64,000 nucleotides of DNA from NCBI GenBank assembly GCA_020637985.1, contig JACKJK010000007.1, positions 99,112 to 163,111 on the forward strand, read 5' to 3'. Made by a program: the position numbers and the translations under genes. This stretch comes from Rhodobiaceae bacterium (lineage in GTDB: Bacteria > Pseudomonadota > Alphaproteobacteria > Rhizobiales > Tepidamorphaceae). Below, piece after piece: positions 24,853 to 32,242 of this stretch. Within the stretch, counting starts at the first letter, position 1; each line of letters starts with the position of its first letter. The notes below the pieces were generated by a model, which searched no databases, had not been told where the DNA came from, and was given only the letters and a program-made list of their open reading frames with translations.

Positions 24853-24928
24853 GGGCGGTTAGCTCAGTTGGTAGAGCGCCACGTTTACACCGTGGATGTC
24901 GGGAGTTCGAGCCTCTCACCGCCCACCA
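24853..24928 (+). tRNA. tRNA-Val(TAC), integration target
   Basis: 76-nt cloverleaf, anticodon arm CCACG-tt TAC ac-CGTGG, encoded CCA. Confidence 0.96.
24906..24928 (+). repeat. attL core (23 bp)
   Basis: TTCGAGCCTCTCACCGCCCACCA, identical to 32220-32242. Confidence 0.93.
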
Positions 24929-25032
24929 CCATTTCCGCTGTAGCATCAGCTACTTACTGAATTCTCTAGCGTTTTTCAAGGCCCATTGCTACAAAATGGG
25001 GCTACAGAATGCGCAGGGGAATTCGTTGGCGG

Positions 25033-26733
25033 ATGCCATATCTGTATCGGCACAAATCTGGAATCTGGTGGTATCGCAGGGGGACTCCCGGCGACATCAA
25101 GGCCAAGAAGCAAGAGTTGGCCGATCTGGGTATCGGCGTCACACGGGAATTTATTAGGTCCCTAGAGACCCGCGATGAACTGCTTGCTAAAGAGAAATCG
25201 TTGATGCTCAACGATGAGATTGAGGCGACTTGGCGAAGTTGGCGGGATGCACTTCGTGATGGGCCTCAGGCTTTGACCCATCGGGAAATCACGGCGCTTG
25301 CCGGTGCAGCCGCTTCCGCAATCCTATCCCGATATGAGGATGAGCCGAATCTCGCACCAAGGCCGCCTCAGGATTGGCTGAACTTCGCTTACTCGATGCT
25401 GCCACTTATAGCTCCACCTACGTTGGTTTATATGGGCGATCCGCTTGAAGGCTTCGCGGAAGAGATCAATGCGGTGCCGACTGGGGAACTGGCGCAGTTC
25501 ATTCGGAACGAAAAGCCAAGAGCCGCGCCGTGGCGAAAGGCTTGGCTAGAGGCTCTTGAGCGAGTGATGCATGCTCACTACCTCAGTCTAGGAACGCGAG
25601 AGGCCGATGCACTTCTTTCCGCCCGTATGCTTGTTGTCTCTACCGATGCCAGAGGACGTCTACAGGATGCAGCAGCGCGTTTCGTGGCGGAGGCTTACAA
25701 TACCCTAGGAGATCGCCTCGAAGGCCGCTATGGCCGCCCTGAGTGGCAGCAAGAGCTGCCTCAGGTGGACACCAAATCGAAACGTGATGCGGGACAGGAT
25801 GCACTTTGGACATTTTCCGGCATCATCGACGATCTAGAGGCTAGGGTTGAGAAGGGAGCGGCAAAGCGTCGCTCGCCCAGTACCTTCAAAAAGTACCGGC
25901 GCATTTGCAGAGAGTTTCGGCAATGGCGCAATAGCGACAATGCTGCGACCGTGACTCCCAATGAGGTCAGCGCGTGGGTCTTATATCTGGCCGAACAGTC
26001 CATTAAGAAGACCACGTTAGTGGACAAGGTCGAGGCCATTAGGTCGGTCATCGAGTGGGGAAGGAAGGCTAGCCATCGGACCCTGTTTCCAGATGGCAAT
26101 CCGGTAGACCATGTTGAGCTGCCAGAGAGGGAAGTGCGGGATAGCGCCAAGCGCACCTATACGCTGGAGCAGGCGCAAAGGGTTCTCCTTGCAGCCCGTC
26201 AGCAGAACCTGTCATACAGGCGCTGGATGCCGTGGGTTATGGCCTACTCTGGAATGCGGGTAGGTGAGGTGGTCCAACTTGAGGCGGAGGACCTAGTGGA
26301 GTTCCGGGGGCACTGGTTCCTGACTGTTCGGGATGACGGAGCAGCAAGGACAACTAAGACCTCAAAGGCACGGATCGTTCCGCTCCACCCCGATCTTGTA
26401 CGTGAGGGCTTTGTGGATTTCGTTCTGAGTGTTGGGGCAGGCCGCATATTCGATGGCACTAGGCACCAGCAGAACCTTGGCGAGTGGATTAGAGGGCAGG
26501 TGCTGACAGGGGAAAAGAGCACTCCGGCACCGAACCACGGCTTTCGGCATCTGCTTGATGATTTGCGTCTCGGCGTTATGGGTGACGATGCCTACGCAAT
26601 CATTTCAGGACGGGCACTGAAGACTAGTTCGGCGCTATACGGCAAGAGCCGTGAGATGTGGGTTAGACTCGCTGAGGAAATGAATAGGCTACCATCTCTG
26701 ATCGACGAGTTGGCACTGACACGGTCGGGGTAA
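25033..26733 (+). CDS. Tyrosine recombinase/integrase with DUF6538-like N-terminus
   Basis: N-terminal YLYRHKSGIWWYRRGTPGD. Catalytic motifs YSGMRVGE, TTKT, NHGFRH, ALYG. Adjacent to attL. Confidence 0.9.
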   Translation: MPYLYRHKSGIWWYRRGTPGDIKAKKQELADLGIGVTREFIRSLETRDELLAKEKSLMLNDEIEATWRSWRDALRDGPQALTHREITALAGAAASAILSRYEDEPNLAPRPPQDWLNFAYSMLPLIAPPTLVYMGDPLEGFAEEINAVPTGELAQFIRNEKPRAAPWRKAWLEALERVMHAHYLSLGTREADALLSARMLVVSTDARGRLQDAAARFVAEAYNTLGDRLEGRYGRPEWQQELPQVDTKSKRDAGQDALWTFSGIIDDLEARVEKGAAKRRSPSTFKKYRRICREFRQWRNSDNAATVTPNEVSAWVLYLAEQSIKKTTLVDKVEAIRSVIEWGRKASHRTLFPDGNPVDHVELPEREVRDSAKRTYTLEQAQRVLLAARQQNLSYRRWMPWVMAYSGMRVGEVVQLEAEDLVEFRGHWFLTVRDDGAARTTKTSKARIVPLHPDLVREGFVDFVLSVGAGRIFDGTRHQQNLGEWIRGQVLTGEKSTPAPNHGFRHLLDDLRLGVMGDDAYAIISGRALKTSSALYGKSREMWVRLAEEMNRLPSLIDELALTRSG

Positions 26734-26872
26734 GGCGTCTTCTGTGCGGAAGGTGGGGGTGCCTTGAAAAGCGCGAAGCAGTTGAAGAGCGACATGATAT
26801 ACGCCGGGGCATTGAGGGCTTAAGGGAAGGCTTGCAGGAGCGGTTGCGCGAGTAGGGCGGCCATAACAATGG

Positions 26873-27697
26873 CTAGCGGCTATTCGCAACCAACTCAGCA
26901 AGCTCCTCAAGGCCAACTATCCGCAGGCCGTATTTCTTTATTAGCCAAGAACGGTTCCCGGGCCCGAAAACGGACTTTGGATTGCTCCTACCTTGGTCCT
27001 CTGTGCATACTAAATCCATCTGGTAGCCAATACTGGCGGCCACAGCATCGCCGTCTGCCCATTCGGCAAAAGCACGGTCAATCTCTCTCTGTTCATCGTC
27101 CTCTGCTAGCGACAGATACTCGTAGTACGGGCGAGCCGGACCGCTAGCGCGGCCTTTGATCCGTTCGGCTATGGCATCGAGCTGTGCTTTACCCGCACCT
27201 CTGTTTTCGATTTCCCGGCATGCTGCCCCCATGGGGTCTAAAAGCGTGCCGTAGATGTCAGCTCTTTGCTCGGGGGTAAGAGGTATCCGCCAATCATCTC
27301 TGTCGATTTCTGGTGGGCGAGCGGTTGCGAGCCGCGATTGAGGGAGGAGAAGGAATCCAAGCGATATTGCCTCCTCAAGTGCATCTCGGAGAACGCCGGG
27401 TAGACCGGGATGGGCGGTGCTCCGACCACCAATAGTGACCCGAAACCCGACGGAGCCATCGTCGTTAACGCGCTCTTCGATCTTGATCGCATCTTCGGCC
27501 CTGGCTTCCAGATAGGAATACCTGCCACCACGGCGGATTGCTTCTAGCGTTGCAACTGTCTCGCTGATGAAACCCTTTATGGTTCCTGCCTTAAGCGCCG
27601 CGTTTAGAGCCAGTAGGGCGGCATGGTGCGGTGCCTTAGGGAACTGCTGAGGCCTAACCACCTGCTGCCAACAGTTGGTGTCGAAGAGAACCTTCAA
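26873..27697 (-). CDS. PIN-like domain protein (putative ribonuclease)
   Basis: Probable TTG start after GAGG gives MKVLFDTN. Also SETVATLE and EWADGDAVAASIGYQMDLVCTED, matching the PIN acidic pattern. Confidence 0.6.
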   Translation of the reverse strand: MKVLFDTNCWQQVVRPQQFPKAPHHAALLALNAALKAGTIKGFISETVATLEAIRRGGRYSYLEARAEDAIKIEERVNDDGSVGFRVTIGGRSTAHPGLPGVLRDALEEAISLGFLLLPQSRLATARPPEIDRDDWRIPLTPEQRADIYGTLLDPMGAACREIENRGAGKAQLDAIAERIKGRASGPARPYYEYLSLAEDDEQREIDRAFAEWADGDAVAASIGYQMDLVCTEDQGRSNPKSVFGPGNRSWLIKKYGLRIVGLEELAELVANSR

Positions 27698-27744
27698 TCT
27701 ATTCAGCCTCGAAATCTCTAGCTTTGCACGCTGAAAATCCCACT

Positions 27745-28095
27745 TTATGGGACATCGGTTGCGGATCGACACACACGGATCGTTTCATGCAGCGAGGGAT
27801 ATTTTTCCAACAACATCCTCGTTCGCTCGAAATCCAATGCGTCAAACATCGGCGGGTCAGGCGTCCATGTTATCGCCAAGCGAAGCCCCATGCATGCTGT
27901 GTGGATAGCGGCCTGTCTTTCCCAGATCAAATAACCGAACAGCGCCAATATTAATGCAAGGATAATTCCGCAGCGGCGACGGACGTCTCGCATCAATAAG
28001 GCTTTACCGGGCGAAGAATATAACGAGCCCATAAGCGAAATTGCGAGCAACCCGCCACCAGCCACTGCGAATGTGAGTACAGTGCTTGGGTTCAT
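27745..28095 (-). CDS. Hypothetical membrane protein (2 TM, ~116 aa)
   Basis: Hydrophobic stretches VLTFAVAGGGLLAISLMGSLY and GIILALILALFGYLIW flanking a basic loop (RDVRRR). Start chosen at MNPST. Confidence 0.55.
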   Translation of the reverse strand: MNPSTVLTFAVAGGGLLAISLMGSLYSSPGKALLMRDVRRRCGIILALILALFGYLIWERQAAIHTACMGLRLAITWTPDPPMFDALDFERTRMLLEKYPSLHETIRVCRSATDVP

Positions 28096-28160
28096 AGATT
28101 TTCTCGCTTGTGAGCAGATTCGTGCATGAGATATCCGACACCCGAGGTACTCAATAACCG

Positions 28161-28766
28161 CTATTGTTTTGCAAGTCTCGCCAGAGTGCTGCGAGATGCT
28201 CCCGTTGCGTCGATTATTTCCCGCCAACTATCCCCTCGTTTCAGCATTTTCACAATTGCCGCATTACGCTTCTTATCGGCAGGACGCCCCCGATACTTCC
28301 CCGCCGCCTTTGCCCGTTTAATGCCCTCAGCCTGTCGCCTAAGTCGATCCTCATAGTCCTTCCGCGCGATAGCCGCGAGCATGTCGAGAAGCATCCCATT
28401 GACGGCCTCCAGCATCCGCGCGGTGAAACCATCTTCACCAGCGCTAGCCATGCCCCAAGAGGTCGGTAAGTCCAGTGCGACTATCCGCACCTTGCGCCCC
28501 TTGATCTTCTCCTTGAGCTTCTCCCAGTCGTCCTCCTTAAGGCGGCTCAGGCGATCTATCTGCTCGGTGAGGAGAATGTCGCCTTCTGCGCAGTCGGATA
28601 GCAGTCGAAATAGCTCGGGGCGCTTCAGTGACGCCCCGCTCTCGTTCTCCGCGTAAAAGGCTGCGATCTTCAGGCCGCGCTCATGGGCGAAGCTCTCAAG
28701 TCGCTCTCGGGCGCGACCAGCATCTTGCTCTTCTGTGGAGGCGCGAAGGTAGGCACGAACGAACAT
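28161..28766 (-). CDS. Serine recombinase (resolvase/invertase family)
   Basis: VRAYLRASTEEQD (catalytic Ser), ESGASLKRPEL, EQIDRLSR, GKYRGRP, C-terminal HTH. GGAG RBS. Confidence 0.93.
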   Translation of the reverse strand: MFVRAYLRASTEEQDAGRARERLESFAHERGLKIAAFYAENESGASLKRPELFRLLSDCAEGDILLTEQIDRLSRLKEDDWEKLKEKIKGRKVRIVALDLPTSWGMASAGEDGFTARMLEAVNGMLLDMLAAIARKDYEDRLRRQAEGIKRAKAAGKYRGRPADKKRNAAIVKMLKRGDSWREIIDATGASRSTLARLAKQ

Positions 28767-28778
28767 AGCGGAACTCCT

Positions 28779-28885
28779 ATAGTTCGTTTTATATGGTTCT
28801 CTATATATCAGTTCAATTAGAGTAGTGTCAATATTTCGGATGAACTCTCTAAGGAGGCCTCACGGATGGTTCGCCAGAACCATAC
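28779..28885. promoter_or_regulatory. Putative res site / resolvase promoter region
   Basis: AT-rich stretch directly upstream of the resolvase with repeated GTTC half-sites in both orientations, and palindrome ATGGTTC-gcca-GAACCAT (28866-28883). Confidence 0.5.
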
Positions 28886-28959
28886 CTTATTGACGGCCAT
28901 AGACCGCGCAGGTTTCCGGCTGCATTCTAGGTTTCACTCAATGGCTGAGGTGGAAGCGG

Positions 28960-29124
28960 ATGAGCGAAGAAGCGGAAATCAGAGAGCACGTTGAGGCGGC
29001 GTTGAAGCTGGTAGAACAGGATGCCGATCGGCTAGGAATGATCGGCTTTCATCTCTCTTGCATCCTCGTGGAACTCGAAGACCTCACTTCCCTAGCGGCA
29101 CCCGGACAGGTAGAAATCTCATGA
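28960..29124 (+). CDS. Small hypothetical protein (54 aa); not in the ORF track
   Basis: MSEEAEIREHVEAALKLVEQDADRLGMIGFHLSCILVELEDLTSLAAPGQVEIS*. GAGGTG RBS; ATGA overlap with the next ORF. Confidence 0.5.
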   Translation: MSEEAEIREHVEAALKLVEQDADRLGMIGFHLSCILVELEDLTSLAAPGQVEIS

Positions 29125-29723
29125 ACTCCGCGTCCAATGTGGACCCGGTAGTTTATATCTCCCCGCCTGCCACGGGGGGAAACGCAACCGCTGACATCTA
29201 CGTTGAGTGTCTCGCGCGACTGGGCCTAATTTTCCAACCGGGAATCCTCGCGGGAGCCTTGGCGGCCCTACTGCTCGTCCCGTGGAGCATAGGTTCCTCG
29301 CTATCCCAGCAGGCGGTCGCCGTTGTGAGTGGCATTGCGGGAGTGCGGGACGGCGATGGTATCCTCTTTTGAGACGCGGAGGTGAGGCTTCAGGGGATCG
29401 CCGCTCCTGAAGACCGCCGCGACAAAAGAGAACCCGGAGGACCAGAATCCTCTGCCAGTCTGCGCCGACTTGTTACTGGCCGGTTTGTTATCTGCCACCG
29501 TGATGGCACCTCAACGAGGGGGCGCCCGGTCGGAGTGTGCTACCAAGACGGGCAAGACTTAGGGCGATTTCAAGTTGAATCGGGGCAGGCCTATAGTGGA
29601 TTGCGGTCAATGAAATATTATGAAGTAAAGCAGCGACGCCTCTTGCTGGAAGCCAAAACGGTATCGCTTTGGGCCGAGCCTCTTAGAGTACCAGCCTACG
29701 CCTCCTGTCGCTTTCCTCGCTAG
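29121..29723 (+). pseudogene. Thermonuclease (SNase-like) gene interrupted by an in-frame TGA at 29370-29372
   Basis: Track ORFs 29058..29372 and 29382..29723 share one frame. TM segment, then GVRDGDGILF*DAEVRLQGIAAPE...RGRPVGVC...GQDLG...VESGQA. Confidence 0.7.
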
Positions 29724-29831
29724 ATCATTGAGCTGCGCGCGATGTGAATCGTCAGGCACATCGAGGTCAATCCTGTGCCACATCAGCCCATCAGATTCTC
29801 GTACCGATGTTGTCTGGTAGCCACTGCTCAT
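29607..29831 (-). CDS. Small hypothetical protein (74 aa), phage-like
   Basis: GGAGG 7 nt before the ATG. MSSGYQ...WHRIDLDV...GWYSKRLGPKRYRFGFQQEASLLYFIIFH. Confidence 0.55.
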   Translation of the reverse strand: MSSGYQTTSVRESDGLMWHRIDLDVPDDSHRAQLNDLARKATGGVGWYSKRLGPKRYRFGFQQEASLLYFIIFH

Positions 29832-30490
29832 AGAAGTTCCTCCGGGAGCGATCTGCGGAATGCTTCGTTGCAACGGCTTTGACTATCCCATCACCATCCC
29901 TTTACCCGCCGGGGAACTCCTCATGACCTCCTAGCGACCGTTCCGGCGGTGCGGACGCCTGCACGCAAAGACCACAGCCATTCCTTGTGTCCATCGCGGC
30001 GGATACCTCACGGACATCTCGACGGTGCGGAGCATGTGCTTGCGGTACGGGTGACCGGCCCCGGAGCGGAAGTCGCGTGGTCTGTACGGTATGTGCCCAA
30101 TCACATTGAACACGGACTGAGGAGCCTCCCCTGAGGGCATCTCTTCAGGATCGCTCATTGATCCGATGTGACGCGTGAGGGGCCTTCCCGAGACGCCCCC
30201 AATGCCCTCCCAATGACTGCCCGGCTTGATGACCCTCCAAGTTCCTCCAGGTCTTCCATCATGACCTCCACACGGGGCACCGAGCGATGGAAGGTGTGGT
30301 CACTAGGCCGGGGCCTTAAGTGGGTCCATGAGGTCTGTCCTTGAGATGGATGGGTTGCTTCGCTCCTCCTCCCCATCCTTCCTCTTGGTGACCGGGGCAC
30401 CGCAGCGCCTCCCTCAAAGCCCCTAGAGGCGGGGAGGATGGTGGTCTCCCCAGCCTCTTTGAGGAGGAAGGCTCAGGTAGACCCTTAGAG

Positions 30491-30652
30491 AGGGAGCCTT
30501 GAGGCCCCCTGTTCATATACGGTGGGACCGCTCCTAGCTGCGCCGCCGAGACCCGCCGCCCCTCGGCGCTTCCCGCGATGCAATCTCGCTTTGTTGCCCC
30601 TTTACGAGGAGCCGTGGCGTAGGGAGCCTTGAGGCCCCCCTTGTTCTTATAC
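30491..30652. repeat. Imperfect ~30-bp direct repeat, two copies 130 bp apart
   Basis: 30491 AGGGAGCCTTGAGGCCCCC-TGTTCATATAC and 30621 AGGGAGCCTTGAGGCCCCC-CTTGTTCTTATAC. First 19 bp identical. Confidence 0.85.
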
Positions 30653-30936: not shown

Positions 30937-31236
30937 ATGAATTGGGTCTGGCTGGTGGTCGCCGTGTTCCTGTTTGCCGTCTCCCCAGCGGCGGGCGATC
31001 AATGCCCAATCCCGATAGAGACCATCAAGGCCCAGATGATCGCGGAGAGCATAGGACGGTATCCGGGGACGTGCGCGTGTCCGTATCAGAGCGACCGTGC
31101 GGGAAGGCGGTGCGGGAAGAGGTCCGCATGGAACAGGCCGGGAGGATATGCCCCCCTGTGCTTCCCTTCGGACATCACGCCGGACATGGTGAGGGAGTTC
31201 TGCGACGGCGTGGTGCGGTTCCGTCAGGGGAGTTAG
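30937..31236 (+). CDS. Small secreted cysteine-rich hypothetical protein (99 aa)
   Basis: Signal peptide MNWVWLVVAVFLFAVSPAAG. Motif YPGTCACPY..DRAGRRCGKRSAW.RPGG..PLCF..DIT; 6 Cys. Confidence 0.75.
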   Translation: MNWVWLVVAVFLFAVSPAAGDQCPIPIETIKAQMIAESIGRYPGTCACPYQSDRAGRRCGKRSAWNRPGGYAPLCFPSDITPDMVREFCDGVVRFRQGS

Positions 31237-31298: not shown

Positions 31299-31469
31299 CT
31301 AAGTCCTGCCGACGAAGCACACTGCGAAGTGCACCGGGCCTAGCCATGCAAGGCGGGTGTCGTATTCATCGTCCCACCTGTCGGTCCCTACCTGCCAGTT
31401 CTGGAAGTCCATGAACGGACACCATAGGGAAATCCCGAAGTCGTAGCCGAATACGCGGACGGTTCTCAT
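31299..31469 (-). CDS. Small aromatic-rich hypothetical protein (56 aa); not in the ORF track
   Basis: MRTVRVFGYDFGISLWCPFMDFQNWQVGTDRWDDEYDTRLAWLGPVHFAVCFVGRT*. ATGA overlap with the upstream gene's stop. Confidence 0.55.
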   Translation of the reverse strand: MRTVRVFGYDFGISLWCPFMDFQNWQVGTDRWDDEYDTRLAWLGPVHFAVCFVGRT

Positions 31470-32119
31470 GCGTCTTCACCTGAGACTGCGATACCCGCTA
31501 GTTCCGCAAGGTCTTTGCGTGTGGTCCTACCCGTGCGTTCCATCTCTAGGACGGCAAGCAGCCGGTCGAAGTTGTCGAGGTAGGCATCAACACAATCATC
31601 TTCCAGCGGCGTTCCACCTTCCTGACGCTCACGCGCAAGGCGTTCGACGTGGTGGCGTACTTTGTCGATTGCCATCTTCTCCGGTTTGCCGGCCCCCAGA
31701 AGCGCTAGGTTTTCGGGGCGAAGATCATTGGCTAGGTCCAGTGTGGTTGCCGCTTCATGTGGTCCGGCAGCCGCAATGATCCGCGCTACGGGCATAGTGT
31801 CTGTCGCTGCATCTCTGGGGCAGAATTTGACGTAGACCTTGGGGATCGGCTTCGCGAAATTGGAGTTGGTAGCGAATGTGTGCCCGTAGCGGCAAGCCTC
31901 TGCGAACGTGGCAAGCGCCGCAACAGTAAGGGTTATTGCCTTGCGGTGCTTCTTGCCGAATACGGCGACTGCGGATCGGGATTGTGGTGGCAGTGGGCAC
32001 TCATCAGGAGCGACGAGCGCCGCAACGCCAAAGGTCCGGGGGAGTGAATCAATCACTCTCATTGGGTCCCGAAAGACGATTTCAGGGGTCAAGAGCTTCG
32101 TGGTACCGTGCAGTTCCAT
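31466..32119 (-). CDS. Hypothetical protein with a degenerate HNH-like segment
   Basis: 217-aa ORF with AGAGG RBS. YV...VARII.AAGP.E.......DLRPENL resembles HNH_3 but lacks the catalytic His. Confidence 0.6.
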   Translation of the reverse strand: MELHGTTKLLTPEIVFRDPMRVIDSLPRTFGVAALVAPDECPLPPQSRSAVAVFGKKHRKAITLTVAALATFAEACRYGHTFATNSNFAKPIPKVYVKFCPRDAATDTMPVARIIAAAGPHEAATTLDLANDLRPENLALLGAGKPEKMAIDKVRHHVERLARERQEGGTPLEDDCVDAYLDNFDRLLAVLEMERTGRTTRKDLAELAGIAVSGEDA

Positions 32120-32219
32120 GTTGCTAGCTTCCTCTTGCTACAAAGGTCTGCTACAAAACGGAAACCATAGGCCAAGAAAACTATAGTGAATTCAATGGCA
32201 TGTGGGGGTATGGATGGAA

Positions 32220-32242
32220 TTCGAGCCTCTCACCGCCCACCA
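32220..32242 (+). repeat. attR core (duplicate of the tRNA-Val 3' end)
   Basis: Identical to 24906-24928. No tRNA 5' half upstream. Confidence 0.93.

Follow-up and report, generated by a model that had tools for sequence, protein, structure and literature searches.

A widespread, unnamed family of predicted standalone split-PIN nucleases with a likely anti-phage role

A 274-aa protein encoded in a genomic island of a Rhodobiaceae bacterium is, on balance, best explained as a one-gene anti-phage effector, a predicted metal-dependent PIN ribonuclease that would act alone and is probably self-inhibited. It belongs to an unnamed and widespread family of predicted standalone split-PIN nucleases that is likely to be anti-phage. 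A complete active site under purifying selection, the lack of an antidote gene, transfer as a single gene and repeated arrival in defence loci together make a one-protein, self-restraining defence RNase the best explanation. Because the family moves alone and is often found among anti-virus genes, phage defence carried out by this protein by itself is the likely function. The gene was analysed within a stretch of 64,000 nucleotides (the window) of contig JACKJK010000007.1, and its features are listed in Table 1.

Table 1. Coordinates of the split-PIN gene, its parts and the surrounding island (window positions).
Feature	Position	Strand	Remark
tRNA-Val(TAC), integration target	24853..24928	+	3' end, 24902-24928, is the left att repeat
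Tyrosine integrase (DUF6538 + Phage_integrase)	25009..26733	+	
Standalone split-PIN nuclease gene (predicted), 274 aa, TTG start	26873..27697	-	
C-terminal PIN half, residues 212-274 (E212, W213, D215, D217, C231, T232, D234, S242)	26873..27064	-	
Middle region, residues 54-211 (R59, H96-P97, R122, G167/G169)	27065..27538	-	
N-terminal PIN half, residues 1-53 (D6, N8, E46, E52)	27539..27697	-	
GAGG ribosome-binding-like site, 9 nt ahead of the TTG start	27707..27710	-	From sequence
Orphan 116-aa ORF with two predicted TM segments	27745..28095	-	
Serine resolvase/invertase	28161..28766	-	
Right att repeat, island end	32216..32242	+	26/27 identical to the tRNA-Val 3' end

The island is 7.3 kb long and is inserted at tRNA-Val. 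GC content is 0.55-0.58 across positions 25001-30000 as compared to ~0.65 outside the island. In three relatives (G211, G269 and G047) tRNA-Val adjoins tRNA-Asp directly, and the island interior was matched in none of 20 relatives. The PIN gene and an ORF with two transmembrane (TM) segments are located between the tyrosine integrase and the serine resolvase. A sequence-only reading had described them as two co-oriented genes ~47 bp apart, and both ORFs are indeed on the minus strand with a gap of 47 bp. They were reproduced piecewise, with 0 differences, by contigs X3 and X4 from two other studies, which indicates that neither ORF is an assembly error. The 825-bp PIN gene encodes a protein beginning with MKVLFDTN; a longer, 299-aa reading from a GTG start is unlikely because homologs begin at this same motif. 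No sigma-70-like promoter was found within the island, nor were other defence genes recognised in it by Pfam, PADLOC, NCBIfam or PHROGs.

The acidic pattern and large insertion that the earlier reading saw in the downstream protein are borne out by a structural model and by an alignment of 249 sequences. The AlphaFold2 model of the full protein has a pLDDT of 93.6 and a pTM of 0.89. When it was used in a wide structural search, VapBC, FitAB, toxin-antitoxin (TA) or PIN titles made up 13 of the top 15 rows. The best row (137/147 residues aligned, rmsd 3.7) spanned residues 1-274 of the model with a Z of 8.8, only slightly above the level that the search tool calls common. Chains in the top 15 rows are 119-147 aa long. 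Since near-whole PIN chains align across residues 1-274, the PIN core appears to be split by inserts, and the protein is predicted to be a VapC-like PIN fold interrupted by ~150 residues of insertion. Atlas PIN clusters, with a TM of ~0.7 by target, agree weakly with a PIN fold.

The middle region is modelled as a helix and beta-hairpin, followed by one core helix and strand and then a helical bundle; it is predicted to be a lid or sensor. The hairpin lies at about residues 70-90 and the helical insert at about residues 142-200. Folded alone, it reached a pLDDT of 90. The insert alone retrieved no Foldseek row at E 0.001, and its best row in the wide structural search (Z 3.8) matched helices only and barely covered the hairpin part, which does not imply a new fold. 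For the whole protein, a viral fold library gave no row at E 0.001 and a single PIN-like row at E 0.13. PDB sequence searches of the ORFs gave nothing useful.

Acidic residues were placed by the secondary structure of the model. Across the 249 sequences, conservation is 97% at D6, 98% at E52, ~100% at E212, D215 and D234, and 99% (D/E) at D217; taken as sites, D6, E46/E52, E212/D215/D217 and D234 are 88-100% D/E. Other positions conserved at 95-99% are N8, R59 (99%), G169, W213, C231 and S242. According to the accessible part of PMC5499597, the acidic residues of PIN domains follow strands 1, 2 and 4 and also sit at the start of helix 4, and the layout in this family fits that pattern for active PIN nucleases. 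The dN/dS values of close homolog pairs range from 0.05 to 0.20 (28 usable estimates, 33 pairs listed). A check by structure search had been proposed for a PIN fold with acidic active-site residues; the VapC-like neighbours and full acidic site of the model point to both.

The family is large. A word-based search retrieved 45 proteins, the query included, among 7997 candidates. A profile search of 1.84 billion sequences retrieved 912 representatives of 50% identity clusters at E up to 0.001, 333 of them at 1e-30. The median length is 265 aa (249 sequences), and the loci carry titles from Proteobacteria, Bacteroidota, Acidobacteriota, Cyanobacteria, Nitrospirota and others. Occurrence is patchy, with 4 of 400 other genomes of the order carrying the family, two of these in pieces. 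Members were found on 9 plasmids and on no phage record. Neither ORF of the window matched Pfam, PADLOC, NCBIfam (E 0.1) or PHROGs (E 0.001), and 0/43 family members matched PADLOC-DB 2.0 (2023) at E 0.01. Pfam PIN_3 matched weakly in 2/43 members; no Pfam PIN model matched the window protein. In 12 loci the gene caller gave a short or broken ORF, which may reflect contig ends, assembly errors or real decay. Fusions may be rare, one longer form of 905 aa having appeared among the 7997 candidates scored. This protein, P0192, ends in a full copy of the family sequence, which is preceded by a second split-PIN-like set of motifs (by eye), and has no Pfam match. Several members, among them P0018, P0092 and L038, carry a short N-terminal DUF2934 or similar extension.

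Family members are transferred as single genes. Among 17 close pairs, 15 match at the DNA level over the PIN gene and a few flanking bases only; for example, a Nitrospira and a Chromatiaceae MAG are 93% identical over 869 nt and share no neighbours. The two exceptions are two Sphingomonas loci with a common block and a pair in which AbiE genes are shared as well. In an all-against-all comparison of neighbours at the homolog loci, only common mobile and TA genes recurred, and the only recurring adjacent family in 78 loci is a tyrosine recombinase. With the window gene in a tRNA-Val island and the family moving as a single gene, the description of the gene as mobile cargo stands. The earlier reading had also noted the lack of an adjacent VapB-like antitoxin; none lies beside the PIN gene, and none recurs at homolog loci.

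At three loci (L005, L007 and L053) an inverse core overlaps the stop codon, and a core with 7/7 complementarity lies directly upstream. Matches of 6 or more at the upstream core were seen in 4/76 family genes as compared to 1/685 other genes, and the DNA downstream of the three genes folds into bulged hairpins (z -2.75 to -3.37). From the core match and hairpin folding, on which the cassette call rests, these three loci are candidate single-gene integron-type cassettes with attC-like ends. The reading of these ends as attC sites follows the integron consensus. The window's own PIN gene has no attC-like end. In four further genomes (L004, L008, L022 and L066) a ~319-aa tyrosine recombinase, of one family throughout, overlaps the PIN gene or lies directly against it, possibly as part of a small mobile element that carries the PIN gene. 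L013 and L081, in an acidobacterial MAG and a viral contig, share another stretch with each other, a single element in which the PIN gene directly follows an integrase.

Genomic context was scanned in 78 loci through 235 neighbours of at least 75 aa within two genes of the PIN gene; neighbours under 75 aa and 118 rank-3 neighbours lay outside this set. Excluded were L046 (a near-duplicate of L045), L081 (a near-duplicate of L013) and L067, in which no ORF was called. With a list of defence categories drawn up after the hits had been seen, strict defence Pfams were found in 14/78 loci. These include restriction-modification (RM), McrB-type AAA, GmrSD, AbiE, RloB and SLATT families, and the same 14 loci also hold NACHT-linked, Schlafen, KAP and Cas3-like families. 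Putative defence genes occur in a further 6/78 loci and TA genes only in 11/78, while 47/78 have no recognisable defence or TA gene within two genes. Against controls that were not taxon-matched, strict defence loci numbered 0/40 in a random set (146 proteins; p=0.0023) and 0/40 in a serine-recombinase set (127 proteins), the latter with up to 5 putative and 3 TA loci and with 18/40 loci from one DUF2924-linked family. Set against this mobile control, p ranges from 0.002 to 0.15 with the categories included: scoring two borderline control loci as hits gives p=0.085, pooling defence with TA gives p=0.039 (31/78 vs 8/40), and admitting every putative hit gives p=0.15. The proposed association with defence genes is supported, 14/78 loci comparing to 0/40 in each control, and the signal is modest relative to mobile DNA.

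In two loci the PIN gene is located inside a type I restriction operon, between hsdS and hsdR. The gene order is hsdM-like, gmrSD, hsdS, PIN, hsdR in L034 and hsdM, bro, hsdS, PIN, rhuM, hsdR in L058. Antitoxin-less PIN genes in type I RM operons, with neighbourhoods that are not conserved, have been described by Matelska et al. 2017 (PMC5499597, section 17). Their arrangement is the same as in L034 and L058, and the accessible part of that paper shows no function for them; the present family may be one of its non-Pfam clusters, e.g. PIN_19 or PIN_23. On an Acetobacter plasmid the PIN gene is beside type I RM, MazEF and HNH genes. A patatin gene lies directly downstream of the PIN gene in L011, and a divergent member (L086:151-3039, in G082) is flanked by a nucleotidyltransferase-like ORF (by eye) on one side and a patatin gene on the other, all three co-oriented.

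The same context bears on the strongest alternative, namely that the protein is an accessory nuclease or orphan toxin, standalone and without a phage trigger, such as an RNase that responds to stress or plasmids or a toxin that maintains an element. Defence genes would then be neighbours only because accessory DNA gathers in the same hotspots. The modest enrichment over mobile DNA is consistent with this, as are the loci with TA neighbours only, the many loci with integrases or IS genes, the four in which the PIN gene is within 4 bp of a related tyrosine recombinase, and the presence on plasmids with no phage record. However, no antitoxin recurs, so that an addiction role has no evident neutraliser; strict defence neighbours were absent from the mobile control, and the PIN gene is inserted inside type I RM operons twice. 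We consider this alternative rather unlikely, though it deserves to be kept in mind.

A one-gene anti-phage effector is the preferred reading, and for it we infer self-inhibition, a trigger and a substrate. Because no antitoxin travels with the PIN gene, the protein would be produced constitutively and kept inactive by its inserts. A phage-derived trigger might bind or shift the beta-hairpin/helical insert and open the active site. The opened PIN site could then cut structured RNA, most likely tRNA or rRNA, in the manner of VapC toxins; these substrates are favoured solely because the nearest folds are VapC toxins and HARP. Cutting of RNA would stop translation and abort the infection. A bolder proposal is doubtful as a whole: that the family is a widespread unnamed one-gene immune system, with more than 900 clusters in many phyla, in integron cassettes and inside restriction operons, in which the modelled insert would serve as both lock and phage sensor on a PIN RNase. 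Its helical part might be a HARP-type tRNA-reading spike, an RNase P-like scaffold turned into an infection-triggered tRNA destroyer.

The closest published design is DS-3 (working name PIN8, WP_022645725.1, from DefensePredictor), a one-protein split-PIN system with no antitoxin; it blocks T4 and RB69, catalytic mutation abolishes this defence, and auto-inhibition has been proposed for it (PMC13092281, accessible part). The resemblance lies in a single protein with PIN halves at the N- and C-termini, a long insert between them and no cognate antitoxin. The first Asp and Glu are equivalent (DS-3 D7/E42, family D6/E46 or E52), and both occur in mobile DNA, the DS-3 gene being in a prophage-like region. 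DS-3 differs in its length (340 aa vs ~265 aa in the family) and in its validated phage defence, which for the family is predicted only. Homology was sought with the one DS-3 sequence, WP_022645725.1; hhalign gave a probability of 0.1 (E 0.54) and the family HMM scored -2.0 bits. As no sequence or profile similarity was detected, membership in DS-3 is not established, and by analogy the family is likely to be built and regulated like DS-3 rather than to be a demonstrated member.

The word 'undescribed' in the earlier reading thus applies to the family, within reach of the literature, but not to the design, since one protein with a split PIN domain, no antitoxin and anti-phage activity has been published as DS-3 (PMC13092281, accessible part). 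Literature searches, which as text searches cannot reveal a family by its sequence, found no description of the family. The whole word 'PIN' has 0 occurrences in the accessible text of the integron preprints 10.1101/2024.07.02.601686, 10.1101/2024.07.02.601719 and 10.64898/2026.03.17.712381. The first two of these preprints, as far as their accessible text goes, report anti-phage systems carried as integron cassettes, which in one of the two are mostly single genes, and their supplements could list a family member. The present analysis assigns to a large unannotated family a predicted fold, an active site that can be tested and a likely function. An anti-phage role, if real, would place the family next to DS-3, whose self-inhibition is a proposal only, as another and apparently independent lineage of one-protein split-PIN defence, and would show how a toxic RNase stays safe without an antitoxin. 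A length of 825 bp and natural mobility across phyla make the family easy to test.

The family shares its core fold and acidic active-site layout with VapC and FitB. In contrast to these, it is twice as long (median 265 vs ~130 aa), has two inserts and no recurring antitoxin gene, and its window member lacks a Pfam PIN match. Membership in type II VapBC was rejected on the lack of a cognate antitoxin (78 loci), the doubled size and the single-gene cassettes.

HARP, the minimal protein-only RNase P (PIN_5), was also compared. The position of the helical insert in the PIN core, immediately ahead of the second group of catalytic Asp residues, resembles that in HARP (PMC8266387, accessible part). 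The family differs by an extra beta-hairpin insert, by having no PIN_5 match (PF08745 matched neither the window protein, nor family members, nor G000) and by a mobile, defence-linked context where that of HARP is housekeeping. Under a HARP-like reading, the helical insert would be the equivalent of the spike helix, would oligomerise and read the tRNA elbow, and the protein would carry out RNase P-type maturation rather than act as a toxin. HARP/PRORP chains fill the first 11 Foldseek PDB rows, but even the best (7e8j, probability 1.00, TM by query 0.34) has an E of 1.4e-3 and none reached 0.001. HARP 7f3e gave the longest alignment among the top 30 rows of the wide search (150/188) but ranked 16th by Z (6.8, rmsd 5.1), below VapC chains. 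Residues 147-272 align weakly by profile to the HARP spike helices and C-terminus, a match short of significance (E 0.065, three HARP sequences). HARP was not retrieved when the insert was searched on its own, and a patchy, mobile occurrence is ill-suited to a housekeeping role. HARP membership is thus not established by either the profile match or PIN_5, and a tRNA-processing function is improbable.

Similarly small is the chance that the protein is a one-gene defence nuclease that cuts phage nucleic acid directly, DNA structures included, rather than host RNA. Its hairpin and helices would then resemble the wedge and arch of FEN-type nucleases. Six conserved acidic residues and the 99% conserved R59 exceed the minimal VapC set, and the inserts have no known match. 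The structural neighbours, however, are VapC-type RNases, and the only FEN-type row shown, T5 D15, has an E of 1.4.

The upstream ORF had been read as a 2-TM protein, and it does contain two hydrophobic segments, with 19-residue hydropathy peaks of ~1.8 at residues 4-25 and 40-58. The ORF shows a weak codon pattern (GC by position 0.50/0.49/0.56), and its Atlas score of 0.82 is in the range of shuffled proteins. A word search found only the ORF itself among 18 candidates. No relative was found in metagenome or viral contigs by a search that reaches close relatives only, in any of 400 other genomes of the class, or on a plasmid. The co-occurrence of both genes that had been proposed as a check was not seen, as a relative of the TM ORF was found in 0/81 PIN-homolog loci (best E 0.16). 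In 38 of 74 homolog loci with an upstream gene, that gene is co-oriented and within 150 bp, and in 1/74 it is a close, co-oriented small 2-TM gene that is unrelated to the TM ORF; among the 449 small ORFs of these loci, 24 are 2-TM. A two-component system, in which the 2-TM protein senses infection or restrains the PIN RNase, is the least probable reading of all: the genes share an orientation across a 47-bp gap that holds no terminator-like site, and a recent strain-specific pairing would escape comparison, but the TM ORF has no relatives and looks weakly coding, 2-TM neighbours occur upstream at the background rate, and the PIN gene has its own ribosome-binding site and moves alone. The membrane partner proposed in the sequence-only reading is on these grounds set aside. 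The TM ORF is likely incidental cargo, an unrelated passenger, and with this false lead removed the membrane gene need not count as part of a system.

Several other elements were observed in the island. A frame at 29121-29723 (+), with a hydrophobic N-terminal part, a staphylococcal-nuclease-like C-terminal part and an in-frame TGA at ~29370, is likely a decayed nuclease gene. A small Cys-rich protein with a signal-peptide-like start is encoded at 30937-31236 (+) and matches PHROG 27544 (function not known). Beside the right att site, a 217-aa ORF at 31466-32119 (-) has no Pfam, NCBIfam or PHROG match; its sole PADLOC match is weak (E 0.006, 24 residues). An exact 19-nt direct repeat (30491-30509 and 30621-30639, 130 bp apart) in a part of the island with few genes is a possible binding or replication site. 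Two related 24-nt sequences (24986-25009 and 32135-32158; 75% identical) lie directly inside the two att sites and may be integrase arm sites.
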